From the IMG/VR virus record IMGVR_UViG_3300001357_000001, positions 1-64,000 of that record: 64,000 nucleotides of DNA; one strand, given 5' to 3'. The notes under the pieces are model-generated. The model was not told where the DNA came from. It made no database searches and worked only from the letters and a program-made list of their open reading frames with translations. The position numbers were made by a program, and so were the translations under genes. This DNA is from a virus. Taxonomy: Duplodnaviria > Heunggongvirae > Uroviricota > Caudoviricetes. Each line of letters begins with the position of its first letter. Position 1 is the stretch's first letter. Positions 1 through 38,435 of this stretch are shown here, piece after piece.

Positions 1-13
1 TGACGTATATACA

Positions 14-655
14 ATGTTAGCAGCTGGCGGGTTTAAGGTTTTAGTGGCTTGTGAAGAATCGCAGACAGTATGTAAAGCATTCCGAGCGTTGGGAATAGAG
101 GCTTATAGTTGTGATATACAAGAACCAAGTGGAGGGCATCCTGAATGGCATATACAAGGTGATGCGGTTAATGAGGCTTATAGTGGCAAATACAATATGA
201 TGATAGCACACCCACCTTGTACTTATATGAGCAAAGCAGGTGCAAGATGGATGTACCCCACAGCAGGGAATTTAAGCCAAGAAAGGTTTGAGTTAGCAAT
301 GGAAGCGAAGGATATGTTTATGAAATTACTTAATGCTCCGATTAAATATATTGCAGTTGAAAACCCTGTGCCTTTGAAAGTGGTGGGTTTGCCTAAACAT
401 AGCCAAGCGGTGCAACCTTATGAGTTCGGACACGAATACAGCAAGAAAACCCTGCTTTGGCTTAAAAATTTACCACTATTAGAGCCGACTAAAATAGTAG
501 AAAACTATAAGCCTTATTTACCTTCAAATACTGGTGGCAAAAAACGAGGACAAAGTTATAGTAGAGGAAAGGCAAAAAATGCAAAGGAAAGTAGTAAAAC
601 TTTTGAAGGAATAGCGAAGGCGATGGCTGAACAGTGGTTATTAGCTTGCTGCTAA
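14..655 (+). CDS. C5 cytosine DNA methyltransferase-like protein, probably 5' truncated by the window edge
   Basis: PPC-x3-S-x-AG stretch (HPPCTYMSKAG) resembles C5-MTase motif IV; VENPVP resembles motif VI (ENV); AAGGF near the N-terminus may be motif I; the frame is open to position 2. Confidence 0.45.
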   Translation: MLAAGGFKVLVACEESQTVCKAFRALGIEAYSCDIQEPSGGHPEWHIQGDAVNEAYSGKYNMMIAHPPCTYMSKAGARWMYPTAGNLSQERFELAMEAKDMFMKLLNAPIKYIAVENPVPLKVVGLPKHSQAVQPYEFGHEYSKKTLLWLKNLPLLEPTKIVENYKPYLPSNTGGKKRGQSYSRGKAKNAKESSKTFEGIAKAMAEQWLLACC

Positions 656-778
656 CGGTTGGATGTATATGTAGTGTGAGATTTGAAACACTAACTTTGA
701 TTAACCACAGAAGTTGATTAGAAGTAGAAATGTTGAATATACCACCGAACCTCACATTACATATACACCTTGTTATGT
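651..778. repeat. attC-like imperfect palindromic element, copy 1; its 5' end overlaps the stop codon of the upstream MTase
   Basis: GCTAAC-GGTTGGATGTATATGTAGTGTGAG ... CTCACATTACATATACACC-TTGTTATG; about 90% identical to the inverted copy at 38583-38710. Confidence 0.55.
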
Positions 779-957
779 GTAGGTGTGATTATTAAGAGAT
801 AAACTTTATTCGGAGAACTGAACAAAAATTTTAAAAGAAAAAGAAGGGTGGAAACTTTTTAAGAATAAATGAATATAATAAAAAACAGGGAAACCGAAAA
901 CTGATTAGAGTAGGTAAAATAGTAAATAACTTTTACAAAAAAACAAGATTAATTATC

Positions 958-1665
958 ATGGAAGAAAAATTAAAAAATGTATTTGAAAAAGAATACTCAG
1001 AAAACAAATTAACTGATTTTCTAATTAAAACTCAAAAAGTATATGAGTTTTTTGATTATGATTTCAATTTAAAACCAATAGAAATTATTTCAAAAGATTT
1101 TTATGGTGGTAAAGTTTGGTTGAATGAAGATTACGTAAATTGTTCAATATCAAATTTGGAGATAATCACATTTAACTTAGTCTATCCAAAATTAATAACT
1201 AAAATAGTTGAAACCAATTTAGAAAGATTTGGTGAAGTATATTCAAAATTGATTGAACTATATTATTTGGATAAGAACATTCAACTAAAACAGTATATTA
1301 ACATGACTTATGGTTGTTTACAAAATCCAGATTGTATGATATATTCTAATAACATACAATTAGTACCGAATAGACTAAATAAAATGTTAAGTGATATTTT
1401 ATCGGAATTTAAAGGACACGTTATTTATATTGATACCGACCAATTATTTTTTAGAAATTTTGATGAAATAAGAGAAAGATTTGAAAAGTATTTTAACAAA
1501 ATAAACAAATATGACTTAACTTATTTTTCTGAAAAATCAAAATTTGGATTATTTATACGAAAAAAACAATACTTAATAGAAGAAAATGGTATGATTAAAA
1601 TAAAAGGTATGAAACATTTCAACGAAGATGGTATGTGTCGTGGTGGTTTTATTAATATAAAATAA
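958..1665 (+). CDS. Family B DNA polymerase palm-domain fragment (motifs A, B, C and KxY only; no exonuclease or thumb domain)
   Basis: TFNLVYP resembles DxxSLYPS (motif A with Asp replaced by Thr); KQYINMTYG matches Kx3NSxYG (motif B); YIDTDQ matches YGDTDS (motif C); KKQY matches KxY; only 235 aa. Confidence 0.55.
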   Translation: MEEKLKNVFEKEYSENKLTDFLIKTQKVYEFFDYDFNLKPIEIISKDFYGGKVWLNEDYVNCSISNLEIITFNLVYPKLITKIVETNLERFGEVYSKLIELYYLDKNIQLKQYINMTYGCLQNPDCMIYSNNIQLVPNRLNKMLSDILSEFKGHVIYIDTDQLFFRNFDEIRERFEKYFNKINKYDLTYFSEKSKFGLFIRKKQYLIEENGMIKIKGMKHFNEDGMCRGGFINIK

Positions 1666-2209
1666 TTAATTATGTGGGTGGGTTCTTTTTCTAAAATTTT
1701 CTAACACAATAGTTAATTCGGAGAGGGAACTACACTTACACATAAAGGACACAAATATAAAACGTTTTAACTGAGAAATTAAAATAGAATGAATAATTTG
1801 ATAATTAGTATAAACTTTATTTTGAAAAACGAATAAAATGTTTTATATTTGTTGTTATAAGTATGTATTATTTTTGTTTTACCATATAAAAAGAATATAT
1901 TATGAAGGAATTAAATTTAAAATTAAAAACTAAGATTGTTGATTGTGAGGTTTCTTCAATTAAAACCAATATAATAATTGAAGAACCTGATATTGATATT
2001 GTAATACCGAGGAAAATCAGAAAGTCAGTTGAAAAACTTTTGATTGAAGAATTAAAAAACTCAAAACAAAAATAATATTATTTATAACGTATGGTTGTAT
2101 GAAACGTAGCGATAATAACGCACAAAATTTGATTAAATGTACCGACCTAGCAATATTAGTTTTTGAGGGTTGGCAAAAATAAATTTGAAAAATTTAAAAA
2201 GATACAAAT

Positions 2210-3184
2210 ATGAATGTACTTAGTTTATTTGACGGCATGAGCTGTGGACAAATAGCACTTAATAGATGTGGAATAAAATACGATAACTACTTTGCAAGTG
2301 AGATTGATAAATATGCGATAAAAGTAACACAAGCTAACTACCCAAACACAAAACAGCTTGGCAGTATTACAGAGCTTGACGGAACAAAACTTCCTAAAAT
2401 TGATGTAATGTTTGGTGGTAGCCCCTGCCAAAGTTTTAGTGTTGCAGGAGATGGTACTGGGTTTGGTGGTAAAAGTGGTTTATTTTGGGAATACGTAAGA
2501 ATATTAAAGGAAGTAAAGCCAACTTATTTTTTGCTCGAAAATGTAGTAATGAAAAAAGAATGGGAGCAGATTATTACCGATGCGGTAGGTGTAGAACCAA
2601 TATTAATTAACAGCAACTTGGTTAGTGGGCAAAATAGAAAACGCCTATATTGGACAAATATACCAAACGTAAAACAACCCATTGATAAGGGTATTTTGCT
2701 AAAAGATGTGCTACAGGACAATGTAGATGAAAAATACTTTTATAGTGAAAAGGCTATTAGTTACCTTGACCGAAATAAAATAAATAAGAGGTTTGCAAAC
2801 TACAGCGATAGCGAAAAAGCAAATTGCTTGACTGCTGTTTTTAGCAAAAGCCTACCTTATAATGTTTATGTTGACCAAGAAAAGAGTTATTGCTTGACAA
2901 GCAACTATGGTAATATGGCTTGCATTAACTACAATAAGGGACAAGGACAAATAGTGTTTGATAATAAAACTATTAGAAGATTAACACCTATTGAGTGTGA
3001 GAGATTGCAAACAGTGCCCGACAATTACACTAACCACGTAAGTAACACCCAAAGGTATAAGATGATTGGTAATGGATGGACGGTTGATGTAATTGTACAT
3101 ATTTTTAACCAAATGGCTGCGATAGCAGACAAAGAGGGGGAGGAAAAACTAATATTGCGACACAACAGCACCAATGTTGATTAA
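2210..3184 (+). CDS. DNA cytosine-5 methyltransferase (Dcm family)
   Basis: Motif I LFDGMSCG; motif IV GGSPCQSFSVAG; motif VI LLENV; C-terminal TRD plus motif IX-like QxGNG(W). Confidence 0.9.
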   Translation: MNVLSLFDGMSCGQIALNRCGIKYDNYFASEIDKYAIKVTQANYPNTKQLGSITELDGTKLPKIDVMFGGSPCQSFSVAGDGTGFGGKSGLFWEYVRILKEVKPTYFLLENVVMKKEWEQIITDAVGVEPILINSNLVSGQNRKRLYWTNIPNVKQPIDKGILLKDVLQDNVDEKYFYSEKAISYLDRNKINKRFANYSDSEKANCLTAVFSKSLPYNVYVDQEKSYCLTSNYGNMACINYNKGQGQIVFDNKTIRRLTPIECERLQTVPDNYTNHVSNTQRYKMIGNGWTVDVIVHIFNQMAAIADKEGEEKLILRHNSTNVD

Positions 3185-3297
3185 ATGAACGAACCTAGCT
3201 ATGTTTTATACAACGTGTTAGCAACTGTGCCTTATTTGGTACAACGAACGACAATTACAAGCATAGCAAAGGTTTATAAATTGATTTAGGCATTGTT

Positions 3298-3390
3298 GCT
3301 AACGGTTGGGTGTATGAGAAGGTTTGCTTGTAGAAGTTTTCAAATTACCACAAATGTTGATAGCAAACTTTCTTATACACCTTGTTATGC
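3298..3390. repeat. attC-like imperfect palindromic element, copy 2, downstream of the Dcm gene
   Basis: GCTAACGGTTGGGTGTATGAGAAGGTTTGC ... GCAAACTTTCTTATACACCTTGTTATGC; arms complementary with two conserved mismatch positions. Confidence 0.55.
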
Positions 3391-3498
3391 TCTCGTGCCG
3401 ATTTATTAAGTACAAAACTTAATTTGGAACACTAAAGAAAAACAAAAAAAATTTAGGTGGAAAATTAAAATTTGAATATTTATATATAAAAGAAAACG

Positions 3499-3918
3499 AT
3501 GAAAGATTTGAAGAAATTTATAGCAACTACCATAAGAGAATATTTGAATGAATCAACAAAAGTATTTGGTTATAGAAATACTAATTCTAATAAAATCGGC
3601 AAATATGGTACATTTTATAATGTGAAAAATACAAATCATTACAATACTAATATCGTAGAATTAAATTTTAAAAATCCATTAATTATTGAAGATAGCGATG
3701 TATATAATTTTGAAGGTCTTACCTTAGAATATTTATTTTGGAAATGGTTTCCTGAATTAGAAGATACTTACGTAATTATGGCTAAAAAACAAGGGATTGA
3801 AACTGGTGAATTAATTGATAAATTAGTTACTAAAGAAGCAATCAAAAGAGGTTATGATGGTATCATTATGTGTGATTTAGAAATTGTTGATTTAACAACT
3901 CATCCAAACTTTAAATAA
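3499..3918 (+). CDS. hypothetical protein
   Basis: ORF of 139 aa on the same strand as its neighbours. Confidence 0.4.
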   Translation: MKDLKKFIATTIREYLNESTKVFGYRNTNSNKIGKYGTFYNVKNTNHYNTNIVELNFKNPLIIEDSDVYNFEGLTLEYLFWKWFPELEDTYVIMAKKQGIETGELIDKLVTKEAIKRGYDGIIMCDLEIVDLTTHPNFK

Positions 3919-3974
3919 GTATGTAGGGAAAATTCTTTTTGTTTTTCATCACAAATGTTAAATCGAAGAACTGA

Positions 3975-4045
3975 ACTAAGGCATGGAGCATAACGGCTAT
4001 GGGTATGGAGTCGGTTTTTTACGGGTTTGAAACACTAAAATTAAA
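3975..4045. repeat. truncated copy of the palindromic element (left half only)
   Basis: GCATAACGGCTATGGGTATGG ... GTTTGAAACACTAA resembles the 5' half of the element at 651-778. Confidence 0.35.
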
Positions 4046-4048
4046 TAT

Positions 4049-4315
4049 ATGAATAAGGTAGATATAATTAGAAAGCACATAGGTGACGATGACTTTTACG
4101 ATATGAACGGAACATCAATGTTAACCAACATTTTGAACGCAATGGAAGAGTATAAGGAACAGGAAGTAAAAAACTGCTCTATACCCGATGTTAGCCAACA
4201 ACGTGAACAGTTAATTGATTTTGCTATTCGATTTGACGGTGGAAATACAAGAACAAATAGAAAGGCTTACGAGCAAGAAGTTGACGACTACCTAAAATCA
4301 ATTAATTGTGGCTAA
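4049..4315 (+). CDS. hypothetical protein
   Basis: ORF of 88 aa. Confidence 0.35.
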   Translation: MNKVDIIRKHIGDDDFYDMNGTSMLTNILNAMEEYKEQEVKNCSIPDVSQQREQLIDFAIRFDGGNTRTNRKAYEQEVDDYLKSINCG

Positions 4316-4352
4316 CTATTATATATAAAACTTAATATTTAAAATATTAATC

Positions 4353-5159
4353 ATGAGTAATTTAGCTGATAATTTTTTAATGATTTATATTGAAAAGTTA
4401 AAATATTTTAATTATTCTAAACATACTATTAGAGATTATTCGCATTATTTTGAAAAATTTTTGATTTATGTTAATAAATATCCTCAACATCTAACATCTA
4501 ATGATTTCGAGAATTATTTATTAAACTATAAATTTTCATCAGTTTCTCAACAAAATCAAATAATTAACGCATTAAAGTTTGGATATGAAAAAGTTTTAAA
4601 TAAAAAATATAATAAAATTGATTTTCAAAGACCAAGAACCGAGAAAAAAATACCACAAATAATTGATAAAGAATTTCTATTAAATAGAATACCAAAAATC
4701 AAAAATATTAAACATAAGACAATAATATCTTTAGCATTTAGTGTAGGATTAAGAGTTTCAGAAGTAATTAATTTAAAAATAAAAGATATTGATTCTAAAA
4801 GAATGATAATTAATATTTATCAAGGTAAGGGTAAAAAGGATAGAATTGTTCCGTTGTCAGAAAACATTTTAAATTTATTGAGAGAATATCATAAACAATA
4901 TAAGCCAAATGAATATTTATTTAATGGTCAAAAATTACAACAATATTCACCAGAAAGTTGTAATAAAATAGTAAAAAAATATTTAGGTAATGAATATCAT
5001 TTTCATTTACTTAGACATAGTTGTTTTACTACATTATTAGAATCAGGAACAGATTTAAGAATAATTCAAAAATTAGCTGGTCATTCATCAAGTAAAACTA
5101 CGGAAATTTATACTCATGTAAGCACTAATTTATTATCCAAAATTAATTTACCAATATAA
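4353..5159 (+). CDS. Tyrosine site-specific recombinase (XerC/D-like phage integrase family)
   Basis: C-terminal catalytic signature HLLRHSCFTTLLESGTDLRIIQKLAGHSSSKTTEIYTHV (HxxR ... Y); conserved Arg in the SVGLRVSE box. Confidence 0.85.
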   Translation: MSNLADNFLMIYIEKLKYFNYSKHTIRDYSHYFEKFLIYVNKYPQHLTSNDFENYLLNYKFSSVSQQNQIINALKFGYEKVLNKKYNKIDFQRPRTEKKIPQIIDKEFLLNRIPKIKNIKHKTIISLAFSVGLRVSEVINLKIKDIDSKRMIINIYQGKGKKDRIVPLSENILNLLREYHKQYKPNEYLFNGQKLQQYSPESCNKIVKKYLGNEYHFHLLRHSCFTTLLESGTDLRIIQKLAGHSSSKTTEIYTHVSTNLLSKINLPI

Positions 5160-5160
5160 T

Positions 5161-5190
5161 TGTAACATTTCACAACATTTTTCGTATAAT
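5161..5190 (+). promoter_or_regulatory. phage promoter-like motif, -35 TTGTAACA / extended -10 TTTCGTATAAT
   Basis: TGTAACATTTCACAACATTTTTCGTATAAT lies about 18 nt upstream of the ATG at 5208. Confidence 0.55.
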
Positions 5191-5228
5191 TGTAAAAATA
5201 ATTTCTAATGAATAAAATTAATAAAATA

Positions 5229-5267
5229 GAATCCCTCTCAAAAGATTTGATTATCGTGAGAGGGATT
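5229..5267 (+). other. perfect 11 bp inverted repeat (hairpin) inside the short leader ORF, ending just before the in-frame TAA
   Basis: GAATCCCTCTC-N17-GAGAGGGATTC. Confidence 0.6.
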
Positions 5268-5273
5268 CCGTAA

Positions 5274-5630
5274 GTGACAGGTTCGGGAAAATCAACCTTT
5301 GCTGGAATGGTTGGCAGAGCAATCTGTTGTGCTGATGATTATTTCACATATGGGAATGATTATCGTTGGTCACCAGATAAAGTAAGTGCTGCTCATGATT
5401 GGTCTCAACGTAAATGTAGACGTTTCATGAAAGCAGGTATTGAACGTATTGTTGTTGCTAATACCAGCACAAGAGTAAGAGAAATGCAACCATATATGGA
5501 TTTAGCTGAACAGTTTGGATATAGAGTATTCACAGTTATTGTTGAAAGTCGTCATGGCAATAAAAGTGTTCATAATGTTCCAGAAGAAACTCTGGAAAAA
5601 ATGAGAGAACGTTTTAACATAAAATTATAA
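5274..5630 (+). CDS. P-loop kinase of the polynucleotide kinase (PNK/AAA_33)-like type. The reading frame continues upstream to the ATG at 5208 but is interrupted by TAA at 5271
   Basis: GSGKST Walker A sits at residues 3-8 of the GTG-initiated ORF; the upstream in-frame peptide MNKINKIESLSKDLIIVRGIP looks like the missing beta-1 strand; GC content is higher than the surroundings. Confidence 0.5.
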   Translation: MTGSGKSTFAGMVGRAICCADDYFTYGNDYRWSPDKVSAAHDWSQRKCRRFMKAGIERIVVANTSTRVREMQPYMDLAEQFGYRVFTVIVESRHGNKSVHNVPEETLEKMRERFNIKL

Positions 5631-5632
5631 TT

Positions 5633-5986
5633 ATGAGAATGTGGATGGTAGACCCAAAAATTTTATGTAATAAACACTTGCTTGGAGAACATGGTGAGAT
5701 TCATAAACACAGGCATAATTTCGTAAAACAACATAGTATTACGAAAAGAGTCTCACCTGTTGTTCAAATTCAACCATCGGCAATGCAAAGCAGACATGAT
5801 GAACTTGCAGTAGAAATGTTGAGAAGAAATATGAATCATAAGTCTCCTTTTAAGCAACCAGATATATCATATCTTCCAACAAATGAAAGGTCTGTTGTTG
5901 TTGATATACAGAACTCAATTAAGGATTTAAGTAATAGATGTTCTGAATGTGCTAAACGAATAAATAATATGAATTATGTGTTATAG
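5633..5986 (+). CDS. denV: Pyrimidine dimer DNA glycosylase (T4 endonuclease V / DenV-like)
   Basis: NKHLLGEHGEI and RHDELAVEMLRRNMN align with T4 EndoV DQHLMAEYREL and RQIELIAECLKRGFN. Confidence 0.5.
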   Translation: MRMWMVDPKILCNKHLLGEHGEIHKHRHNFVKQHSITKRVSPVVQIQPSAMQSRHDELAVEMLRRNMNHKSPFKQPDISYLPTNERSVVVDIQNSIKDLSNRCSECAKRINNMNYVL

Positions 5987-6200
5987 TGGTAGATGTAGAT
6001 GGGAAAATCATATGGGAGATTGTAGATTTCCTAGTAGTAAAAAAGTAACTGAAAAATATCCATTACCTGTTTGTGAAATACCTACATGTGAAGAAGAATG
6101 CACTGAAGAACATGAGAAGTTTCTTAACGAGGTCTATGATGATATTCAAAAAATATTAGAAGATGAAAAAAGAAGAGATAAAGAAAATAATAAAACCTGA
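5976..6200 (+). CDS. small Cys-rich (zinc-ribbon-like) acidic protein
   Basis: CRFPSS ... CEIPTCEEEC. Confidence 0.3.
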   Translation: MCYSGRCRWENHMGDCRFPSSKKVTEKYPLPVCEIPTCEEECTEEHEKFLNEVYDDIQKILEDEKRRDKENNKT

Positions 6201-6714
6201 AAACGGTATTGAAGAAGCAATAATTGGTAACGAATACTTTATCGAAGGCTGTCAATATGGTCGCCCCCGAAAAGGACATCCAGAAGGACAGGTTATATAT
6301 CATATAAAAGAAGTGCTTGAAAACATAGATGAGTTTTACGGTGATGATGAAGACCGTAGTGATTTACGATTATTAGCAATACTTCATGATAGTTTTAAAC
6401 ATAAGGTAGATAGAACCAAACCAAGAGTCGGTGAAAATCATCATGGAATGATTGCAAGAAGATTTGCAAGTAGTTATCCTATTGCTAATCACGTATTAGT
6501 TATTTTAGAAAAACATGATGATGCATTTAATGCATGGCAGAAAGGTGGAAGACATAATAATTGGTATAAAGCAGAAAATACTGCTAATCAACTTATTCAA
6601 GGATTACTTATTGAAAACTGTTTAGACCTTTACGTGAAATTTTTTAAATGTGATAATCGTACAGGTGATAAACAGCAAGATAATTACGAATGGTTTATTA
6701 ATTTAATAAAATAA
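6163..6714 (+). CDS. HD-domain phosphohydrolase
   Basis: H ... HD motif (LAILHDSFKH) with downstream His and Asp residues (HHGMIARR, EKHDDAF). Confidence 0.55.
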   Translation: MKKEEIKKIIKPENGIEEAIIGNEYFIEGCQYGRPRKGHPEGQVIYHIKEVLENIDEFYGDDEDRSDLRLLAILHDSFKHKVDRTKPRVGENHHGMIARRFASSYPIANHVLVILEKHDDAFNAWQKGGRHNNWYKAENTANQLIQGLLIENCLDLYVKFFKCDNRTGDKQQDNYEWFINLIK

Positions 6715-6720
6715 TTGTTT

Positions 6721-6751
6721 TTGTAACAAATTTATTATATTTTCGTATAAT
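6721..6751 (+). promoter_or_regulatory. phage promoter-like motif
   Basis: TTGTAACAAATTTATTATATTTTCGTATAAT, with an ATG 13 nt downstream. Confidence 0.6.
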
Positions 6752-6763
6752 TAAAATAAAAAA

Positions 6764-6982
6764 ATGATAGTCGTAGTAAAGATAATTGTATTTTTTTTAG
6801 CACTTTTTGCAAGTTTTGCTTTAATTGAAGATGTTATTGAAAGAATAATATTAGCATCAAAAAGAAAATATGAAGATTATCACGATTCTTATGTACGAGG
6901 ATATACAACATTATTTGAAGGCATACTACCTTTATATGTTATTATTTTATGGACAGCATTTTATGTATTAAACTTATTATAA
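6764..6982 (+). CDS. small membrane protein
   Basis: two hydrophobic helices. Confidence 0.4.
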   Translation: MIVVVKIIVFFLALFASFALIEDVIERIILASKRKYEDYHDSYVRGYTTLFEGILPLYVIILWTAFYVLNLL

Positions 6983-7414
6983 ATGTTTGAATTATTACTT
7001 GGACACCTAGCAGGTGATTATCTTTTACAAAATGAATATTTAGCTTTGAATAAATCCAAAAATTCATTAAATGGTTGGATGGCAGCATTTGTGCATTGCA
7101 TTCTTTATACTCTTGCAGTGTGTTTATTCATGTGGAATTTTGATTGGTATTGGATAGTAGCAGTATTTTTCTCACATTTTTTTATTGATAAATTTAATTT
7201 AACTGAATATTATTTAAAATTAATTAAAGGAAGAAGTTTAAAAGATTTTGTGAATAAAGATTATATTCCACCACATTATTTTGTAGCTATTCCAAATAAA
7301 AAAGTTAATCGTTATGATATCCTTCAGGGTGGTTTTAGCGCATTAGTTTATACAATAACAGATAACACTATGCATCTTATTTTAATGTGGGGTGCGTATA
7401 ATATAATTTATTAA
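6983..7414 (+). CDS. membrane protein
   Basis: hydrophobic segments; ATG overlaps the upstream stop. Confidence 0.4.
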   Translation: MFELLLGHLAGDYLLQNEYLALNKSKNSLNGWMAAFVHCILYTLAVCLFMWNFDWYWIVAVFFSHFFIDKFNLTEYYLKLIKGRSLKDFVNKDYIPPHYFVAIPNKKVNRYDILQGGFSALVYTITDNTMHLILMWGAYNIIY

Positions 7415-7416
7415 CT

Positions 7417-7767
7417 ATGAGCACATATATTAATCAATACTTTATGTATGGAATTTCAGTTCCGTATAACTGGTATAAAGAATGGGAAGATAAAACTGGT
7501 AAGGATTTCCATGAAACATTCGAAGAATTTATGGATGAAAGTAAAGATAATATCCATTGTTTATTTGATGGTCGTGATGGACGATACATTATAATTGGAA
7601 AAGTATTAGAAAAAACCGATGGAAATCAACGTTTACTTGGTGATGAACAACCAATTGTTGTTCCAAAAATAAATAAGTGGGATAGAAATATTATTGAAAG
7701 AAATGTGAAAAAACATTTTGGATTAACAGGAGATTTTAATTTTTACTTCGTAACTCATTATAAATAA
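7417..7767 (+). CDS. hypothetical protein
   Basis: tightly packed ORF. Confidence 0.4.
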   Translation: MSTYINQYFMYGISVPYNWYKEWEDKTGKDFHETFEEFMDESKDNIHCLFDGRDGRYIIIGKVLEKTDGNQRLLGDEQPIVVPKINKWDRNIIERNVKKHFGLTGDFNFYFVTHYK

Positions 7768-8065
7768 AATATGGCTGGATATTTAAAAGAATTTAAAATT
7801 TTTGATTACGACATATTATTTGTCTTTCGGCATAGATATGAAAAAGATGATGATGGTGAAAAATTAATTAATACTTTTACCATGTGGAGAGAATGGCGAT
7901 TAGGATTTTTCTTTAAAAAAAATAAAGCCGTTGGAAAAAAGAACTTTAAAAACCCAAAAAAATGGAAAAACAATTTAGTAAATCATATTATGATTGGTAT
8001 TGATTTACTCTGGTGTAAAACATGGGTTACTATTAGTAAAGGAACAATTAAATTAGAAATAAAAG

Positions 8066-8863
8066 ATGAAAAATAATATTAAATTAGGACATCAAGCACC
8101 TAAAGGCTGGAGAGTTGATAGATTCAATAGTATTGAAATCAGTGGTGATTTACATTACTGTTTATCACATAATTTCGTATATGATTGTGAAGAAGAAGAA
8201 CGTAAACTTTATAACGCCCAGCCTTGTTATTATACTGATGATAGATTTACTGATACTATTCATAATTATTTTAAAAAAACTTATTTGTATTGGACACGTT
8301 ATTATGATATTAGTTTGAAAGCATGTATCAGAAGAACACTCCAAGTAAAAAATATTCCTGTTGGAACTATTGTCGAGTTCAAAAAAAGTTGGTATTATCC
8401 GAAAAGAAGAATTGATAATAGTTATAAATTTAAAATCAAGAAATTTAATCCTTTGGATATTAAATATGAAATTAACTTGCCAAAATATAAAAGAAATTTT
8501 GAAAATGACGAATTCTCTCAAAAATTAACAGAAGCACTTCGTGCTAATGGTTTCATTGTTGGTGTAAGTGAAGGAAACCCAAACTTTCTGTCTTCAATGA
8601 TTAGTACTGCTGCAGCATATACTGGTCAAGTAGTTCAAGAACAAGATGAAAATGGTCAAATAGCAGTTGCATACGGACATGGAAGAATTATTGGATTTAG
8701 TACTGGTGAAAATAGTTTCAGAGGCTATGGTAATGGTTGTGAAAACATACTTTATGATTTTCATGAAGAATTTAATAAATGGAGTCAATGTATTGAAATT
8801 CATAAATCAACACCAATTGATGAAATAATTAAAGAATTAACTGACGATAAAATAGATAAATAA
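8066..8863 (+). CDS. hypothetical protein
   Basis: 265 aa ORF; its start overlaps the upstream stop. Confidence 0.45.
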   Translation: MKNNIKLGHQAPKGWRVDRFNSIEISGDLHYCLSHNFVYDCEEEERKLYNAQPCYYTDDRFTDTIHNYFKKTYLYWTRYYDISLKACIRRTLQVKNIPVGTIVEFKKSWYYPKRRIDNSYKFKIKKFNPLDIKYEINLPKYKRNFENDEFSQKLTEALRANGFIVGVSEGNPNFLSSMISTAAAYTGQVVQEQDENGQIAVAYGHGRIIGFSTGENSFRGYGNGCENILYDFHEEFNKWSQCIEIHKSTPIDEIIKELTDDKIDK

Positions 8864-9375
8864 TGGGAATTACTAAAATAAGATGTTTATTAGGTGTCGA
8901 AGTATTTGAAATTTCTGATAAATACATCATGGAATTAAGACAAGCACATCGTAATGCTGAAGAAGTATTTGATATACTTCCTGAATATACTATTAACACA
9001 AATAAAGGTGTTGGTAATAAACCCGTGCTTGCAAAATATTTTCATCAATTTATCGGTCATGGTGATAGTGATGAAAAATATTTATATTTCAATTTACAGG
9101 CTGCTGACAATCAATTAGATTTTGAAATCAGAGAAGGTAGTATTGAAGATATATTTGAAGGCTATGATTTTAAAGAATTATTATCTCATTTCAAACCACA
9201 AACCGATGATGATATAAAAAAATATGTATTTCCACAAACAAATTTTTTAGTTGTTGAATTAACATATATTACATCACAAGATTATTATAGTGGCGGTTGG
9301 GAAACTGATGTTGAAGTCGAAATTATCGGATATTTAAACCCTAATTTAGAAATACAATATTTTAAAACTGATTAA
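8863..9375 (+). CDS. hypothetical protein
   Basis: 170 aa ORF; start and stop overlap in ATGA. Confidence 0.45.
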   Translation: MGITKIRCLLGVEVFEISDKYIMELRQAHRNAEEVFDILPEYTINTNKGVGNKPVLAKYFHQFIGHGDSDEKYLYFNLQAADNQLDFEIREGSIEDIFEGYDFKELLSHFKPQTDDDIKKYVFPQTNFLVVELTYITSQDYYSGGWETDVEVEIIGYLNPNLEIQYFKTD

Positions 9376-28615: not shown

Positions 28616-30775
28616 GTATAATAATTAAATTTATTCGTTTAATTTTTTGCTATTCCAATAAGTTTTAAAAAACCGTACATTGCAACAAATACACAACAAA
28701 ATGCAATGCCAATCCCTAAATACATTAATGAGTCCTCTGGAAGTTGTTTAATAAAAGATATTGCTTGTAACTTAGTTTTTGTTACTAAAAAACCTGTAAA
28801 TGATAATGGTATAATACCGATTAATATCATTGCAAAAAATGTTATAATCTTAAGAATTGTTTTCATGATACTTTTTATTTAAATTATGCACTTCCGTACT
28901 TATAACTTTTAAATTGTTTATTGTCTTCACCAAATTCATCAGAAATAATAAACCCTAAATCATTTAATTTATCAATATCTCCCTCACTTACATCATCAGG
29001 ATTTATACCACAAATCCATAATTCATCATGTTCACAATGTGTAGGATAATCAGGATTACCATATTTAAATAAGATTTGTAATGCTTTTATTAAGTCTTCC
29101 ATAGTATTTATATATTTAAATTAAATCATTTTTAATCCACCAGTAACACAAATTTCTAATGCAGATATAAATGACTTTTCATCATATTTTACATTGAAAA
29201 TTATTTTATCACCATTAGGTAAGAATCCTTGTACATTATAATTCCAACCATCGTAAAAGAACGGGTCAACCCAAACAACAATTCCGTGATTAATTTTCAA
29301 CCATCTTTGTAGTTCAGTTAGCCAGAACAACCATCTTTTATCCTCGTTATTAGAATATTTATAAGCATTGTTGTACAATACCTTTGAGATAAATTTATTC
29401 TCTTTAGCAAGTCTAATTATTTCCTCTTTTTTCATGTTAATATTGAGTTATTAATACTATTATCATAAAAATTGCTACTGCAAAATCTAAAATTGCTGTA
29501 TAAAGATTTCCTTTTCTTTTATTTCTTTTATAATAACGTACATTCATCACACCAAAGAACATACACATTATTATTCCTACTATCATTGCTATTAACATCA
29601 TAATTATTGACATTTAGGTATGCTAAGATTTAATTTATCAACAACAGAATTAAAGTCATCATAGATTTGTGAATAATTTTCATTTTTTATTAATTTTATG
29701 ATGTAACCACTAAAACTTTCTTTTTCTCTAATATATTCAAATCTATCATTAATAAAGTAATGATTAGGAAATTCCATGTCGATTTCAACTACTTTTTCAA
29801 CAAAACTCATGAACTGACGTTCAATTAAAATCTTCTTTATTTCAGCCTCACTTATCCAATCTTCTTTATGATGTTGTTCATCAGATATCGTAGACTTTAA
29901 ATTATATAAACCTTTTTCGTTTCTTTTAATCGATATTCCCATAATTATTTTATTTTACTTCATGACCACATTGAGGACACCACCTTTTATCGTCTTCTTC
30001 ATAAACTGGCATATCTCTACCATCACATTTACAATTGTCCTCAAATTTGATTTCACTTTGCTGATGTGGATGCTGTTTAGCAAGCCATTTTTCAATACAA
30101 TCAATAAAAACAATACAATCATTTGCTGTATATATTTCAATATCAACACTAATTTCTTCTGCCAATATCATTGAATTATCCTTGCATCCAACAACTGCCC
30201 TTTGACCTATTTCTGCATTTGGGTGGATTCGACAGAGTTCTTTCAGTCTTTCTTTAATTTGATTTTCAATTTTTTCAACTCTGGCTTTAGCATATTCATA
30301 TGAATCACGCCAATCCTTTGCTAATTTTCTTTTCTCTGCCATAATTATATATTTTCTGTTACTAAGAATATTCCCCAAATTAAATAAAAACTCATTAAGA
30401 GACAAATAATACCACCGATTAAATTAAACCAATCTTTTCTTTTAATCCCATCGGTTAATCCTATTGTTCCAATAATAATTAATATTAAGGTTAGAAATAT
30501 TATTGTTATTAAATCTCTTGGTGATATCATTATTTAATTTCTATTGATTCAGTTTCTCTGGTTTCCCATGATGGGTCAATGTCGTGACAACGAACTCCAT
30601 CAACAATATTATCATTTGGAATAGGAACATTTTTTTTAAGATGTTCTTCAAGTTTCTGTTGTGCTTCTTCTTTCGTTTCGGCTTCAATTATAAAGTGATA
30701 ACGATTTACTTCTACTACATTTGCTCTACCTTTGAATTCCATAGTTCTTATTTTTTTATAATTATTACTAATTAT

Positions 30776-32699: not shown

Positions 32700-33320
32700 C
32701 TAGCCAATATATGTTGATAAATAATCAAGTGCTTGACGAATAATTTCAATTTCATCATTAAATTGTCCTAATCCTCGATTACACTTATCACATAACAAAC
32801 CTCGAACTTTACCTGTATTATGATTATGGTCAACTACTAATTTTTTATTTAATTCATCCTGATGTGTTTTACATATCATACAACAACTATTTTGGTCATT
32901 AAATATTTTATTATAATCTTCAAGTGAAATTCCATATTTTTTTCTTAGTTTATAATCTTTGATTTTATCCTGATTATTCCTCCTATATTTTTTATAAACT
33001 TTTTTTCTTTCTTCGGGACTATTAGATGGACATTCTTTAATCCTTTCTTTATTATCGAAATAATATTGTTGTTGATATTCTTTTATTTTTTCTTTATTCT
33101 TATTTTTATATTCCTGTTGTTGTAATTTAATTTTTTCTTTATTTTTTAAATCATACTTAATTCTTGTCTCTCTAATTCTTTCTTTATTATCAATGCGATA
33201 TTGTTTAATTTTTTCTTTATTTTTTAATCGATATTGTCTATTGTATTCACGTTTTTCTTCTTTTGTTTGCATAATAAAATAATTTAAATTTTCGACATAT
33301 TTATTTTTATATAAATACAC
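32700..33320 (-). CDS. Recombination endonuclease VII (T4 gp49 family) with an N-terminal Lys-rich tandem-repeat region
   Basis: CCMICKTHQDELNKKLVVDHNHNTGKVRGLLCDKCNRGLGQF matches the Endonuclease_7 signature; the N-terminus carries NKEKIK.Y repeats. Confidence 0.8.
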   Translation of the reverse strand: MYLYKNKYVENLNYFIMQTKEEKREYNRQYRLKNKEKIKQYRIDNKERIRETRIKYDLKNKEKIKLQQQEYKNKNKEKIKEYQQQYYFDNKERIKECPSNSPEERKKVYKKYRRNNQDKIKDYKLRKKYGISLEDYNKIFNDQNSCCMICKTHQDELNKKLVVDHNHNTGKVRGLLCDKCNRGLGQFNDEIEIIRQALDYLSTYIG

Positions 33321-34887: not shown

Positions 34888-34918
34888 AATCTTGTTTTTA
34901 TCCCACCGCACAAAAACG

Positions 34919-35050
34919 AAAGCCTAACAATGTACATAGGTAATTTGCCGTTTTGTTTTGGTAGTTTAGTTTATAATTTAATCTTTATCTCGTTCTAGTT
35001 GCTTCGGTTCGTCAAGCAGGGGCAAACATACCCATGTACTCAACGTTAGG
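34919..35050. repeat. attC-like element A
   Basis: GCCTAAC-aatGTACATaGGTAaTTTGCC ... GGCAAAcaTACCcATGTACtcaac-GTTAGGC; sits between the stop at 35070 and the start at 34887. Confidence 0.6.
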
Positions 35051-35069
35051 CATAAAAATTCCCGCTTTG

Positions 35070-35339
35070 TTAGCGGTCATTGCCGAAAACATCATCTTTC
35101 CATTTTTCCCATTCATCGGAAACATCAGAATCATCGTGCACACCAGATAATATACAACCATATCCGTTATTGTAAAGAAAGTCTGGCAAAGGCAACGAAC
35201 CGCTAACAACAAATAAACGTAATAAAAGTTTACGTGCTTGTAATTCAGTGATTTCGCCCCTTTCGAGCCATTGTGCTACTTCTAAAATTTTGTCTTTCAT
35301 ATCTTTTACTACGTTTATTTGTGAACCGTTATGGTGCAT
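35070..35339 (-). CDS. hypothetical protein (cassette ORF)
   Basis: 89 aa, coupled to the ORF at 35339-35596. Confidence 0.4.
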   Translation of the reverse strand: MHHNGSQINVVKDMKDKILEVAQWLERGEITELQARKLLLRLFVVSGSLPLPDFLYNNGYGCILSGVHDDSDVSDEWEKWKDDVFGNDR

Positions 35340-35596
35340 TAAGGAATATCCAACTTAAATTTTACCTCCTTAATATCAATCCATCCATCATATTCGTCTG
35401 GTCTATGCCAGTTTTGAGAATTATCCTCTTGGAACATACCATCTTTATAAAACCCAAATCCTATCGTGAGTCCTTCGTTGCTTATAAGCATTACCCTTGT
35501 CATATTAACTGGGCGTTGTGTCATATCGTTCATAAAAAATAACGCACCATAACATTTTGTATAAATCAGTGGCGTTATGTGCTTAATTTTAACCAC
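35339..35596 (-). CDS. hypothetical protein (cassette ORF)
   Basis: 85 aa. Confidence 0.4.
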   Translation of the reverse strand: MVKIKHITPLIYTKCYGALFFMNDMTQRPVNMTRVMLISNEGLTIGFGFYKDGMFQEDNSQNWHRPDEYDGWIDIKEVKFKLDIP

Positions 35597-35880
35597 TTAG
35601 CTACTAAATTGCTTTTGTGCGGTTCGACAGTTAGTAGCTCCTAATCGCCACCGCTTCATACAATTTACCGTTATGCACAATTAAATTATTACTTATAGTG
35701 TTTATTATAGTATTCTTCACCTACTTGCTCTTTTAAGTATTCATCAGCGTCCATTCCATATAAATCATAGTCGGTCAATTTATCTGTGTTATTGTTCCAC
35801 ATACCAACAAAAGCAAGTATCAAGGCAAGTAATATTATTAAAGCTATTGTTATTCCTATCCATTCCATAATTTTAAAAGT

Positions 35881-36002
35881 ACCTAACAATGTGTATAAGC
35901 AATAGCCGTCAGGCGTTTTTACTATTGCAGTTGTTTAATTATTAATTTTGTTTCTATCTAGTTGGTTCGTGTAGGCTACTGCTCATACACTCGTCCGTTA
36001 GC
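35881..36002. repeat. attC-like element B
   Basis: ACCTAAC-aatGTGTATaAGCAaTAGCC ... GGCTActgCTcATACACtcgtcc-GTTAGCA; compensatory changes relative to element A preserve the hairpin; the 3' core overlaps the stop of the gene at 36005. Confidence 0.55.
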
Positions 36003-36004
36003 AT

Positions 36005-36361
36005 TCATTTGCCAACGCACAGCTTAAAGCAACTAAATTTTTTCCTGTGTTCATTTCCTTTTTCATCAATAAGCACATATCTTTTACGACCTCTCTTGCC
36101 TACGTAATCTACAATTTCGCACTCTCCTATGTTTTCAATTGTAGCCTTTTTTCCTACCAAATGCAATCCTCCTAAACTTTCACCTTTCATCGCATGTTTA
36201 ATATTACGTTTTGGTTGTCGCTTTTCAATTGAATTATAACATCCTTTCTGCATTGTTCTAGGATAGCCTACTGCTTCTCCAATATATTCACCTGTTTGTT
36301 CATCTAAGATACCATCAAGTATCATGTCTGCTATGTCTCCCATAATATTTAATTTTTGCAC
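36005..36361 (-). CDS. hypothetical protein (cassette ORF; true start probably the ATG at 36343)
   Basis: C-terminus KLCVGK is encoded by the same nucleotides (GCGTTGGCAAATGA) as the C-terminus of the 46 aa ORF. Confidence 0.4.
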   Translation of the reverse strand: MQKLNIMGDIADMILDGILDEQTGEYIGEAVGYPRTMQKGCYNSIEKRQPKRNIKHAMKGESLGGLHLVGKKATIENIGECEIVDYVGKRGRKRYVLIDEKGNEHRKKFSCFKLCVGK

Positions 36362-36380
36362 CGCCCACGCTCAAAACGAA

Positions 36381-36480
36381 ACGCTAACAAGCGGTCATAG
36401 TTAATAAAGCCAATTAAGTTTAGTTCGTTGTAGGTTGCGGTAGTGGGTGGCTTTACTAACCATACCGCAAGCCGTTAGGC
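36381..36480. repeat. attC-like element C
   Basis: CGCTAAC-aaGCGGTcATaGTTAaTAAAGCCA ... TGGCTTTAcTAACcATACCGCaagcc-GTTAGGC. Confidence 0.6.
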
Positions 36481-36490
36481 ACAATAAAAA

Positions 36491-36637
36491 TTACTGCTCC
36501 AACTCTTTTAGTTTAGCTTCATTTTCCTTAATCAACTTATCAAGTAAACCTTTCATTACTGGTGGTAGTTGTACCTGCGGTGCATTTAATAACTTTGCGA
36601 CTTCAATATTCATTTCTAATAATTCTTGTAGTTTCAT
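36491..36637 (-). CDS. 48 aa helical protein (cassette ORF; not in the ORF track)
   Basis: MKLQELLEMNIEVAKLLNAPQVQLPPVMKGLLDKLIKENEAKLKELEQ. Confidence 0.3.
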   Translation of the reverse strand: MKLQELLEMNIEVAKLLNAPQVQLPPVMKGLLDKLIKENEAKLKELEQ

Positions 36638-36810
36638 ATTCGTAATTTTTACAGATGCCTAACAGCAAGTATAAAACATGCCTGTCGTGCATCTAAGTTA
36701 ATATTTATGTTAATTTCAAATTAATTGTTTCAATTAAAGTTTGTGTTAGCACGTTTCATACTTGCGTACCGTTGTAGCTTAATTGACAGCTCGCCATCAC
36801 ACATGCTCCA

Positions 36811-37083
36811 TTAGCAACAAATAATTTTACTATATCCTTTTCCTCCATTAAGTGCATAAGGTATATTTTTACAACTGTGCTTATCATCGCAAACCAATTT
36901 TCCACTATAATCTCCATCTTCATCTTTTACAACAATCACTTCATAACCCCATTCACTTTTTAGTTTATCACCAACTAAAATTGGTTGCTTATTATCGTCA
37001 TAAATTCCCGTAAAATTATCATTTCCTAACAATGTATAAAGTTCATTTCTTTGGTCTTTTTGCTTATTATTTTCTGTACTCAT
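36811..37083 (-). CDS. hypothetical protein (cassette ORF)
   Basis: 90 aa. Confidence 0.4.
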   Translation of the reverse strand: MSTENNKQKDQRNELYTLLGNDNFTGIYDDNKQPILVGDKLKSEWGYEVIVVKDEDGDYSGKLVCDDKHSCKNIPYALNGGKGYSKIICC

Positions 37084-37730
37084 ATTTTCCTGTATTTTAA
37101 TTAAATTAGTTGCTATTTCAAAGTCGAAACGAAACCTTATATTAGTACGTTAGTGCGTGTTCCGTTACTACATTCAATATATTTTGAAGTAGTTCTAATT
37201 CGGTTTCTTTTCTTTCAAGGATGTTGTTTATATCAGTTCGTTTCCGTTCACATTCAGTTTTTGCTACTTCTCTATTGTAGTAAGAAACCTCTATTTCTAA
37301 TTCCTCAATTTTCTTTGATAAGTAATTTAGTTCGTGTTCCATATCCATAATTTTACAATTTCATATTACCATCCGTTATAAACAAATAAAATTATTCAGT
37401 TTTAGTTTTACCAATTTACACATATCAATAATTAGTGTCCAAGCATTTGTATATATTAATATACCGTCATCTTTTTGTTTGAATCTCATTCCTAATTTAC
37501 CTTTCGTTAATTTTTCTGGTTCTTTTAAGTCCATAATTTTATCAGATTTATAATATGGCATTAGGTAATTCACAAAAATCAGGTATATTAGGTGTTTTAT
37601 TATCTACACAAATTGAACTATTTGATTTTTCACAGATAAAACTGTAAAGCCATTTGTCTTTTTTACAATAAGGACAATCTGTACAATTTTTTATTGTTAA
37701 AGTAAGTTTTTTCATAATTATTAACGCCAC

Positions 37731-37841
37731 ATAACAATGTATATAAGGCATTGCCTCTGTGGTCTTTTTATATTTATAATTCTGTCCATTCTATCAAAGT
37801 CAGTGAAGGCAACGCCTCATATTATCAACATTTTCGTTAGA
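37731..37841. repeat. attC-like element E
   Basis: ACATAAC-aaTGTaTATAAGGCaTTGCCT ... AGGCAACGCCTCATATTATCAACAttttc-GTTAGAA. Confidence 0.5.
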
Positions 37842-37846
37842 AGTTT

Positions 37847-37999
37847 TTATTTTTGCCCACGCTCTTCAAAATACTCAACCAAAATAGTTTCTACCATATT
37901 ATTGAATGACGGTCTATTTTGTCTTTCCTTTTCTTTCTTAAGTTTATCAACTAACCAATCATTTTTGTCGGTTAGTTTTAATGATATTCGTTTAGACAT
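37847..37999 (-). CDS. ribbon-helix-helix (CopG/Arc-like) DNA-binding protein, 50 aa; not in the ORF track
   Basis: MSKRISLKLTDKNDWLVDKLKKEKERQNRPSFNNMVETILVEYFEERGQK; start overlaps the stop of the upstream gene by 8 nt. Confidence 0.45.
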   Translation of the reverse strand: MSKRISLKLTDKNDWLVDKLKKEKERQNRPSFNNMVETILVEYFEERGQK

Positions 38000-38435
38000 A
38001 TTGTTCTGATTTAATTCTTACTTCAATATCTGCAATTACAAAATCCCAACGTCTTTGGAACAAATCACCATTAGCACGTAATTCACCATAATAGTCTTTC
38101 ATATCATGTGCCATGTGTTCATCTCCAAATTGATAGTGGTCTAATTGAACACCAGCCAAAACATCATCAGTATTCCATTGTTCCCAATTTTTTCTAACAA
38201 TCTTTTCAAATTCATCGTTGTTTTCAGGGAGTGAAGTTCCTATTTCTTGAATGAACATATCCAACCAATATGGGACCATATGTGAACCTTCGTCATCCAA
38301 ATCCATTAATCTATATTCAGATAACTTCATTTCAAGTATGTTACAAATAAAGTCAAATCCGTTTACTCTTGTAATAACACCATCGTCATTTACATCAATT
38401 TCAGTTTCGCTAAATGGAAGTTTAAATGTTTTCAT
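37992..38435 (-). CDS. hypothetical protein, co-transcribed with the RHH gene; possible toxin-antitoxin-like pair
   Basis: 147 aa; a promoter variant TTGAAACA ... GACGTATAAAT lies upstream at 38450-38490. Confidence 0.4.
   Translation of the reverse strand: MKTFKLPFSETEIDVNDDGVITRVNGFDFICNILEMKLSEYRLMDLDDEGSHMVPYWLDMFIQEIGTSLPENNDEFEKIVRKNWEQWNTDDVLAGVQLDHYQFGDEHMAHDMKDYYGELRANGDLFQRRWDFVIADIEVRIKSEQYV

Follow-up and report, generated by a model that had tools for sequence, protein, structure and literature searches.

A probable integron-like gene-cassette platform with a XerA-like recombinase on a large phage contig

Hairpins of one family, interspersed with methyltransferase genes and other small genes and ending at an attI-like site beside a tyrosine recombinase gene, occupy the first 5,270 positions of a 64,000-nucleotide stretch of Caudoviricetes DNA (positions 1 to 64,000 of the IMG/VR virus record IMGVR_UViG_3300001357_000001; the whole stretch is hereafter called the window). 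This arrangement is probably best explained as an integron-like cassette platform, a variant of the integron kind, and positions 1-5159 are likely to form the recombinase-proximal end of such a platform on a contig of ~348 kb from a giant Bacteroidota phage. The argument draws on direct observations: the hairpin elements with their covarying structure, the linkage of these elements to the recombinase, an attI-like site, and cassette differences among relatives that fall exactly at these sites. The integrase IntI with its I2 insertion defines integrons, and this insertion is regarded as the step that first allowed folded single strands to be recombined. The combination of a recombinase, an attI-like site and a hairpin array as a gene-shuffling device in phages looks new, while clusters of such hairpins are already known as attC clusters without an integrase (CALINs).

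Five hairpins of the family lie in region 1-5270 (645-785; 1735-1867; a split copy at 2085-2111 and 3198-3220; 3292-3397; and a truncated copy at 3991-4035). Seven copies served to build a covariance model, R1, which in a search of the window returned seven copies at E<1e-17 and six more at E<1e-5. Thirteen further R1 copies are found elsewhere in the window, twelve at 34.9-40.5 kb on the minus strand and one at 58.4-58.6 kb, and every copy is oriented like its neighbouring genes, which lie on the plus strand up to ~28 kb and on the minus strand thereafter in this DNA of ~28% G+C. An 18-mer from the 5' arm occurs four times in the window, where 0.00 matches are expected by chance. An earlier detector, which combined a regular expression with a stem requirement, gave an equal number of matches in shuffled sequence and was replaced by the covariance model and nhmmer.

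Folding of seven full copies gave the same structure in every case. An outer stem, xTAAC/GTTAx, is lengthened in many copies to ~10 covarying base pairs and is followed by an asymmetric internal loop, of ~5 nt on the 5' side (GGTTG) and 2-3 nt on the 3' side; the long inner stem opens with GTAT/ATAC and ends in a variable tip, the whole hairpin measuring ~60-145 nt. The elements thus have the features of the attC type, namely an imperfect hairpin, R''/R' boxes (..AAC/GTT..), L''/L' boxes, an unpaired spacer, a variable tip and a structure that is conserved more than its sequence, and the same is true of the bacterial copies described below. Many loops (e.g. 700-730, 3345-3365, 2120-2140 and 3168-3188) share a motif resembling CACAAA(T)GTTGATTA(A), and a similar motif is also seen just 5' of some hairpins (3948-3965 and 1704-1722).

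The fold is borne out by massive covariation. Among 144 distinct copies from viral contigs, 98.3% of the cells are paired (pairing percentages are somewhat inflated, the hairpin alignments A2 and A3 having been fitted to the model), both sides change in 16 of the 18 inner-stem pairs, and the covariation score reaches 0.73, compared with 0.16 for shuffles and at most 0.13 for slid partners. One pair is G.T in 143 of the 144 copies and a second pair is G.T in 76, and at the other positions G.T or T.G outnumbers A.C or C.A by 51 to 16. This excess of G.T over A.C therefore points to a constraint on one strand, the one with AAC at its 5' end, and the folded single strand would be the substrate of recombination.

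The recombinase gene (4353-5159, plus strand) encodes 268 aa with matches to PF00589 and PF13495, and HMM and PDB scores place the protein in the Xer/IntI clade. Its best NCBIfam model is XerA_Arch ('site-specific tyrosine recombinase/integron integrase'; 182 bits against a cut-off of 220), followed by IntI TIGR02249 (147 bits, in two pieces, cut-off 265), XerC (141 against 335) and XerD (136 against 330); none of the equivalog thresholds for IntI or for XerA, XerC and XerD is reached. The closest solved relatives are the XerA structures 4A8E and 5HXY, then VchIntIA (2A3V). The original prediction had held that the protein is not a classical IntI and had proposed a search for the extra helix, which bears this out: the alignment with VchIntIA jumps from query residue 179/chain residue 180 to query 217/chain 266, and ~48 IntI residues have no counterpart. 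They make up the region that holds the I2 helix of IntI, and the window recombinase is without the IntI-specific insertion. Pfam detects only the SAM-like and the catalytic domain and no N-terminal arm-binding domain. That this is the only recombinase in the window, as had also been proposed, holds for the part of the open reading frames (ORFs) that was covered: no other was found with Pfam among ten further large ORFs (of fourteen of at least 250 aa) and nine ORFs at 32.7-40.4 kb.

Relatives of the recombinase are widespread. IMG/VR holds 210 of them, 56-77% identical and on contigs of up to 360 kb, and metagenomes hold more than 7,700 homologues, with an identical protein on a contig of 348,137 bp. 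The closest cultured relatives belong to flavobacterial phages, namely the Polaribacter phages Freya and Leef and the Cellulophaga phage Ingeline (34-40% identity); a megablast search with window positions 1-9000 gave no match among cultured phages.

Linkage between hairpins and recombinase was counted in 80 viral loci with recombinase relatives (L001-L080), in which R1 detects 319 hairpins. With an nhmmer profile, 251 of 251 hairpins are co-oriented with the recombinase, 243 of them upstream and eight downstream, which corresponds to densities of 0.52 and 0.012 per kb, respectively; the counts climb towards the gene and reach 69 in the final kb. Most often, ~250-650 nt (range 108-2999) separate the end of the last hairpin from the recombinase. 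Twenty-six loci are without hairpin matches; in most of them less than ~1 kb lies between the recombinase and the end of the sequence examined, often the contig end, which agrees with repeats that fragment assemblies. A contig start or end within ~1 kb 5' of the recombinase is common among the viral contigs, which likewise suggests that hairpin arrays systematically break metagenome assemblies.

Between array and recombinase gene lies a single site of a different kind. The attI-like site TAAC|TATTATATATAAAACTTAATATTTAAAATATTAATC (4313-4352, plus strand; the bar marks the putative crossover point here and below) has its core, TAAC|TATTATATATAAA, at 4313-4329 and stands directly 5' of the recombinase ATG, 36 nt separating the array end (AAC|, 4316) from the gene. 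Its extended motif GGCTAAC|TATTATATATAAAAC (4310-4331) has no second exact match in the window, and a consensus xxYTAAC|TA(T/C)nATATAT(A/C)AA is kept 35-50 nt before the ATG in most of the ~50 loci examined. The site, inspected by eye only, shows no clear dyad symmetry, and one conserved copy adjoins the gene; its layout TAAC-N5-TNTAT parallels that of the hairpin 5' arm, TAAC-N5-GTGTAT.

Evidence that units come and go at these sites is provided by Polaribacter phage Freya. Its ten isolates, all from a single host, vary in genome size (43,978-48,920 bp) and in the integrase coordinate, which shifts from 83 to 4180; the original Freya paper reports only the range of genome sizes. We joined and aligned the region upstream of the integrase in seven of the ten isolates (Freya_1, 2, 5, 6, 8, 9 and 10, here F1 to F10). 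Their aligned flanks are 98.4-100% identical in the junction region, and the isolates differ only by nested sets of units: F1 is contained in F2, F2 in F5, F5 in F9 and F9 in F10, F6 equals F5 plus a unique proximal unit of 442 nt that F10 lacks, and F8 equals F10 minus one internal unit. All eight junctions lie directly after a conserved ..YAAC, six of them being AAC|ACCCCTATAAC just before the integrase. At the integrase-proximal junction, F1 reads TTGTTTACAAC|ACCCCTATAACAACAATAAG..ATG of the integrase, F5 ..TTGTTACCAAC|ACCCC, F6 ..TACTACCAAC|ACCCC, F9 ..TTTTTACCAAC|ACCCC and F10 ..TTGTTGCTAAC|ACCCC, and the internal joint of F8 reads TTGTTTACAAC|TTACATGTATAAGG. The flanking bases differ between partner sites, and the crossover is therefore confined to at most 4 nt. 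R1 matches in Freya_10 show that the junction AAC forms the 5' end of a family hairpin.

Metagenomic contigs from the window's own clade behave in the same way, with six boundaries at (T)AAC| like the Freya junctions. Four of them (L020, L021, L022 and L023) are 96-100% identical from TAAC|TATCATATATCAACACC (TAAC|TATCATATAT) through the recombinase and past it, and unrelated just upstream, L020 and L022 sharing one extra unit that starts with ATAAC|GTAAAT; the pairs L041/L044 and L054/L068 show the same boundary behaviour. A unit of 960 nt (cassette B) is attI-proximal in L050 and L051 and internal in L058, at 99.9% identity, and the hairpins behind an adjacent unit differ between the two genomes. 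An all-against-all comparison of the contigs gave 142 cases in which homology sets in near a hairpin, and in 116 of them it begins at TAAC and extends downstream. Together with the junctions after AAC, this start of homology defines the unit as a hairpin (minus its xxAAC), one or more ORFs, and a terminal xxAAC. A cassette thus consists of a hairpin of ~60-145 nt, a co-oriented ORF or small group of ORFs, and an xxYAAC end, and the array closes at a fixed attI-like site.

By this rule the window would divide into units ending at 656 and at 1746 (657-1746), 2088 (1747-2088), 3303 (2089-3303), 3994 (3304-3994) and 4316 (3995-4316), followed by the attI-like stretch 4317-4352 and the recombinase gene; crossover at AAC, observed in the relatives, would apply to the window too, and its own cassettes would be mobile. 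The first unit ends with an ORF of 213 aa (14-655, plus strand; cassette end at AAC 654-656), which matches PHROG 757 'DNA methyltransferase' (E=7e-53) and, by tblastn, proteins annotated as DNA or cytosine methyltransferase, and has no match in Pfam or the PDB; it is a putative DNA methyltransferase, with PHROG 757 and the tblastn annotations as its support, and a candidate for C5 specificity. Hairpin A (136-nt type; 645-785, plus strand; TAAC 653-656, GTTA 772-775; R1 128 bits; crossover presumably after 656) has a near-identical copy at 38575-38716 (minus strand). With an ORF of 235 aa (958-1665, plus strand) and a terminal CATAAA it would form the unit 657-1746. This ORF contains motifs that by eye recall family-B polymerases (YIDTDQ within VIYIDTDQ; KKQY within KKQYLIEE..KG), a resemblance that Pfam, NCBIfam, PHROGs and the PDB do not support, none giving a match. 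The next hairpin (1735-1867, plus strand; GTTA 1854-1857; R1 41.5 bits, E=8e-8) has a variant 5' end, CATAAA|GG (1743-1746), and arms of 19 nt (inverted repeat I19) that are 95% complementary; together with a 57-aa ORF of no assigned function (1902-2075, plus strand) and a terminal TATAAC (2083-2088) it would make up the plus-strand unit 1747-2088. Window positions 1837-2088 are 82% identical to L044/L081.

A different arrangement is found around the Dcm gene, which encodes a C5 cytosine DNA methyltransferase of 324 aa (2210-3184, plus strand; PF00145 E=3e-50; TIGR00675 1.6e-50). It lies within the loop of a split hairpin whose arms are 1.1 kb apart, the plus-strand 5' half (2085-2111; R1 partial match 2077-2175) consisting of TAAC|GTATGGTT and the stem GTATGAAACGTAGC (2097-2110) and the 3' half (3198-3220, plus strand) of the stem GCTATGTTTTATAC, AACGT and GTTA (3217-3220). 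The two halves pair over 14 bp (2097-2110 with 3198-3211) with G.T at both family-typical positions, and an intact homologue of this hairpin is present in L082. Its loop sequence is duplicated on either side of Dcm as a direct repeat (D1, 2109-2157/3157-3205, 49 nt, 73% identical), an arrangement that could be a trace of gene entry into cassettes. The last nine Dcm codons extend into the second loop copy (3157-3205).

Hairpin B (101-nt type; 3292-3397, plus strand; TAAC 3300-3303, GTTA 3384-3387; R1 87 bits; DNA fold z = -4.1) has copies 80-87% identical in many viral contigs, and window positions 3300-3552 are 83% identical to L021/L153. With a conserved spacer of ~110 nt, a 139-aa ORF of no assigned function (3499-3918, plus strand) and a terminal GCATAAC it would form the unit 3304-3994 (plus strand). 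The truncated hairpin (3991-4035, plus strand), of which only the 5' arm GCATAAC|GGCTATGGGTATGGAG is present, stands just 5' of an 88-aa ORF, likewise without assigned function (4049-4315, plus strand), and would form with it and a terminal GGCTAAC the recombinase-proximal cassette (3995-4316, plus strand). Hairpins of the A and B types carry conserved downstream extensions of ~100-160 nt (786-884 and 3398-3552 in the window) that move along with them between contigs (L060, L152, L133, L021 and L153). A G+C-rich hairpin (5229-5266, plus strand; AATCCCTCTC...GAGAGGGATT) lies 3' of the recombinase gene, where the array-type organisation stops, and was not called by the terminator scan.

Several details of the original prediction are recovered in this layout, including the truncated copy just upstream of ORF 4049-4315, the recombinase at 4353-5159 and the overlap of the first hairpin with a methyltransferase stop codon (TAA of TAAC 653-656 is the stop of ORF 14-655). 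Of the two C5 methyltransferase genes that it had described as each followed by a hairpin, Dcm keeps its assignment, hairpin B standing 108 nt past its stop, and ORF 14-655 remains a candidate. The polarity it had proposed, with the hairpin after its gene, has to be reversed: the crossover lies at the 5' end of the hairpin, so that the hairpin behind ORF 14-655 has to be assigned to the following gene, and Dcm sits inside the split hairpin. The copy at 1735-1867, the split copy around Dcm, the attI-like site (4313-4352) and the 13 copies outside the region were not on its list.

The family is not restricted to phages. A scan of one genome per species returned 547 relatives of the recombinase, the best being 42-56% identical and nearly all from Bacteroidota; these are a distinct, longer protein adjoining arrays and not prophage ends. 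In the two bacterial loci examined, the ORF has 375-380 aa with an extra N-terminal region of ~110 aa, and one bacterial protein scores 241 bits with XerA_Arch (above the cut-off) and matches IntI again in two pieces. Hairpin arrays of the same family adjoin the bacterial homologue (42-47% identical), with 13 copies, ~1 per 750 bp, in L271. Examples among L214-L293 include L271 (9659-20795) and L263 (9674-14000), and the genera Flaviramulus, Maribacter, Algoriphagus, Flavobacterium and others are represented; many bacterial contigs stop right past the recombinase gene. In these loci, 65 of 66 hairpins lie downstream of the recombinase gene and on the opposite strand, with the cassette ORFs antisense to the AAC-5' strand, and linkage is therefore kept in two different layouts. 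The bacterial arrays have the classical integron polarity of ORF and attC in the 'inverted-integrase' layout. The invariant G.T pair is present in 61 of 61 bacterial copies, on the strand antisense to the cassette ORFs; this is not the mRNA strand, and the strand asymmetry therefore follows the DNA recombination site, not transcription. This argues for a single-strand structure at the DNA level and against a purely RNA-level role.

A mechanism consistent with these observations can be proposed. The recombinase would bind the folded coding-strand hairpin, with the TAAC/GTTA duplex as the R box, the GTAT/ATAC duplex as the L box and the unpaired spacer between them, and would cleave within or beside AAC at the 5' end of the hairpin. 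Strand exchange with another hairpin or with the attI-like site would then excise, insert and reorder cassettes. The cargo consists of DNA methyltransferases and many small uncharacterised proteins; the role of the platform would likely be a rapid turnover of accessory genes, plausibly including counter-defence genes. The proposal that the adjacent small recombinase mobilises the elements is supported by the comparative evidence, i.e., linkage, the attI-like site and unit-exact differences, with catalysis a putative step for which linkage and the nature of the junctions speak, and with the polarity of the units reversed.

An alternative which we consider improbable takes the hairpins for regulatory or structural repeats like the promoter/stem-loop modules of T4-type phages discussed below, and attributes cassette gain and loss to general or microhomology recombination between them, with the recombinase as a mere syntenic neighbour. 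The repeats are indeed abundant and break assemblies, most of the 26 hairpin-less loci being near sequence ends; A- and B-type hairpins carry the conserved 100-160-nt extensions, Freya encodes RecT, and arrays without a recombinase exist. However, the junctions are without exception confined to at most 4 nt at AAC between non-identical flanks, unlike homology-driven exchange, one partner is a non-hairpin site conserved beside the recombinase gene, and linkage to that gene is kept in phages and bacteria in two gene layouts. In addition, scans for sigma-70 promoters and terminators and for the Bacteroidetes -7 motif TAnnTTTG gave no enrichment and no promoter signal for the hairpin extensions.

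It is equally unlikely that the recombinase is only a lysogeny integrase or a Xer/Cre-like dimer resolvase, with the upstream site as its attP or dif-like site and the hairpins unrelated to it, as would be suggested by a simple Xer-like tyrosine recombinase, annotated as XerD or integrase, with a single conserved site beside its gene. Against this stand the cassette differences between isolates, which end exactly at the upstream site, the absence of the arm-binding domain, the host contig of ~348 kb, and the layout TAAC-N5-(T/G)NTAT that the upstream site shares with the hairpin 5' arm. A resolvase role could be compatible with cassette recombination, and lysogeny integration or dimer resolution may be additional roles of the enzyme.

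Less probable still is a role of the hairpins solely in RNA, as processing, stabilising or termination signals between genes, which would account for the sense orientation of every phage copy between genes, the G.U-compatible wobbles on the sense strand and the three copies in whose loop the next ORF begins, but not for the Bacteroidota G.T strand antisense to the cassette ORFs, the stems without a following T-run, the lack of any Rfam family match at gathering thresholds across the whole window, or the exact DNA breakpoints and the attI-like site. Transposition of the kind seen with miniature inverted-repeat transposable elements (MITEs) was set aside, given the strict orientation, the absence of target duplications and the boundaries shared with a non-hairpin site at the recombinase, and a hairpin telomere, shufflon, retron or CRISPR is ruled out by the anatomy. 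Each of the three alternatives covers part of the data, and none covers together the breakpoints within 4 nt, the conserved non-hairpin partner site and the linkage in two layouts.

Cassette recombination by the window recombinase thus remains the preferred explanation, and several points weigh against it. The enzyme is without the I2 helix, which in IntI is considered essential to recognise folded attC sites, and its connection with the junctions is putative. Mobility is seen in relatives whose recombinases are 40-77% identical, the window itself having no close relative that shows a cassette difference. The phage hairpins are transcribed in sense, which leaves room for an RNA-level role there, and the support from pairing is tempered by the model-fitted alignments. 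A second array in the window, ~30 kb from the recombinase, and Polaribacter phage P12002L both hold hairpins without a recombinase, and the P12002L site attC1, by eye a family member and the only one that others have tested, is the one site that IntI1 failed to recombine (PMC9892861).

The second array (34915-40470, minus strand) comprises 12 hairpins, co-oriented with the genes and with one to three small ORFs between them, at 40360-40470, 40002-40109 (5' half), 39693-39833, 38575-38716, 37722-37847, 37017-37160, 36650-36782, 36375-36485, 35874-36008, 35540-35681, 35194-35339 and 34915-35056 (R1 matches, all on the minus strand). No attI-like motif is found nearby, and a Pfam scan of part of the ORFs in this interval detected no recombinase; the array fits the definition of a CALIN (at least two attC-type sites, no integrase seen nearby). 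Most of its ORFs have no known domain, one carrying DUF6527. In three hairpins (39693-39833, 37017-37160 and 35194-35339, minus strand), the next ORF has its start codon inside the loop and includes the 3' arm as coding sequence; the ORF from 39754, for example, encodes ..PCNIDIVRR out of the hairpin arm. A LAGLIDADG homing endonuclease (PF14528; 42828-43649, minus strand) and an Endonuclease VII-domain protein with a lysine-rich repeat N-terminus (32700-33320, minus strand) lie near this array, and an isolated, more divergent hairpin is present at 58448-58591 (minus strand; R1 24.3 bits, E=0.0017).

In a wider perspective, we incline, with modest conviction, to the view that these loci represent a second lineage of integron-type platforms without IntI, in which an I2-less XerA-like recombinase acts on folded AAC hairpins. 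The lineage would be native to Bacteroidota chromosomes and adopted by their phages, including jumbo phages of ~350 kb, with the cassette polarity flipped for transcription with the phage genes, as a bank for swapping methyltransferases, accessory and counter-defence genes. If this is true, the same site geometry without the insertion would represent either an independent solution or the ancestral state, and the origin of integrons would become open to a direct test; tools that depend on the IntI-specific domain would miss the Bacteroidota loci as complete integrons; and attC-like clusters labelled as orphan CALINs in phages, and perhaps those in Bacteroidota, would be explained. For phages, the platform would provide a dedicated site-specific route of accessory-gene turnover, for which Polaribacter phage Freya offers a cultured model with natural cassette variants. 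Metagenomic assemblies break at these arrays, and annotators routinely give the recombinase the wrong name, XerD or integrase.

Among known systems, integrons share many features with these loci. Both have a tyrosine recombinase of the Xer/IntI clade adjoining an attI-type site and a cassette array, imperfect hairpins with RYYYAAC/GTTRRRY-like ends, an unpaired spacer and a variable tip in which structure is kept over sequence, crossover at the AAC/GTT triplet, and variable array content at the attI-proximal end. The relative orientation of folding strand, attI and integrase gene is also that of classical integrons. The attC bottom strand of an integron reads 5'-RYYYAA|C ... GTTRRRY-3', followed by attI and then by intI pointing away, and the phage element on its folding strand reads 5'-xxYAA|C - spacer - L - tip - L - spacer - GTTAxx-3'. 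In contrast to integrons, the phage recombinase is without the ~35-aa IntI insertion (I2 helix) and stays below the cut-offs of the IntI models, the cassette ORFs lie on the folding strand with the hairpin at the 5' end of its cassette, the hairpins have an invariant G.T mismatch and an asymmetric internal loop, and the carrier is a phage. The authors of IntegronFinder treat recombinases without the IntI-specific domain as not IntI, and Bacteroidetes have been described as essentially devoid of complete integrons (Neron et al.); within their 'integron-like' subgroup, Smyshlyaev et al. found the insertion to be incompletely conserved.

Phage hairpins of this kind have been reported before. Qi et al. 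(2023; PMC9892861) described CALINs in 17 phages, including Polaribacter phage P12002L with two methyltransferase cassettes, took the phage clusters for parts of bacterial integrons and assayed them with IntI1. In P12002L (L213), which has no annotated recombinase, R1 detects at least seven copies of the family flanking methyltransferase genes, among them those at 29998-30064, 38025-38098, 38869-38944 and 39112-39253; P12002L_attC1 (TGCTAACGG...CCATTGTTAGGC), a family member by eye, has family-type ends, and one of the L213 copies appears to be this published site. The P12002L sites thus belong to the same hairpin family; Qi et al. described neither a cognate phage recombinase nor an attI-like site nor naturally varying cassettes. 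A literature search of partial coverage found no account of a phage recombinase with attI and hairpin array or of natural cassette variants, and an earlier description elsewhere is possible.

Further systems share single features with the loci described here. The 'inverted-integrase' integrons of Treponema and others resemble the Bacteroidota loci in that the recombinase gene is co-directional with the cassette ORFs and the array lies past its 3' end, but they use a true IntI with the insertion, whereas the Bacteroidota protein is XerA-like with ~110 extra N-terminal residues. XerA provides the closest matches of the window recombinase in sequence and structure (4A8E, 5HXY), and Xer-type enzymes without the I2 helix do recombine folded single strands, as XerC/D do with attP(+) of the CTX phage. 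Unlike the sites of Xer systems, the phage hairpins are multi-copy and delimit cassettes, and the recombinase falls below the cut-offs of XerA, XerC and XerD. The PeSL modules of T4-type phages likewise consist of repeated intergenic stem-loops around variable small genes in hyperplastic regions; their shuffling is considered homology-driven, and no dedicated recombinase or attI-like site is known for them, whereas the junctions of the present system are site-specific.

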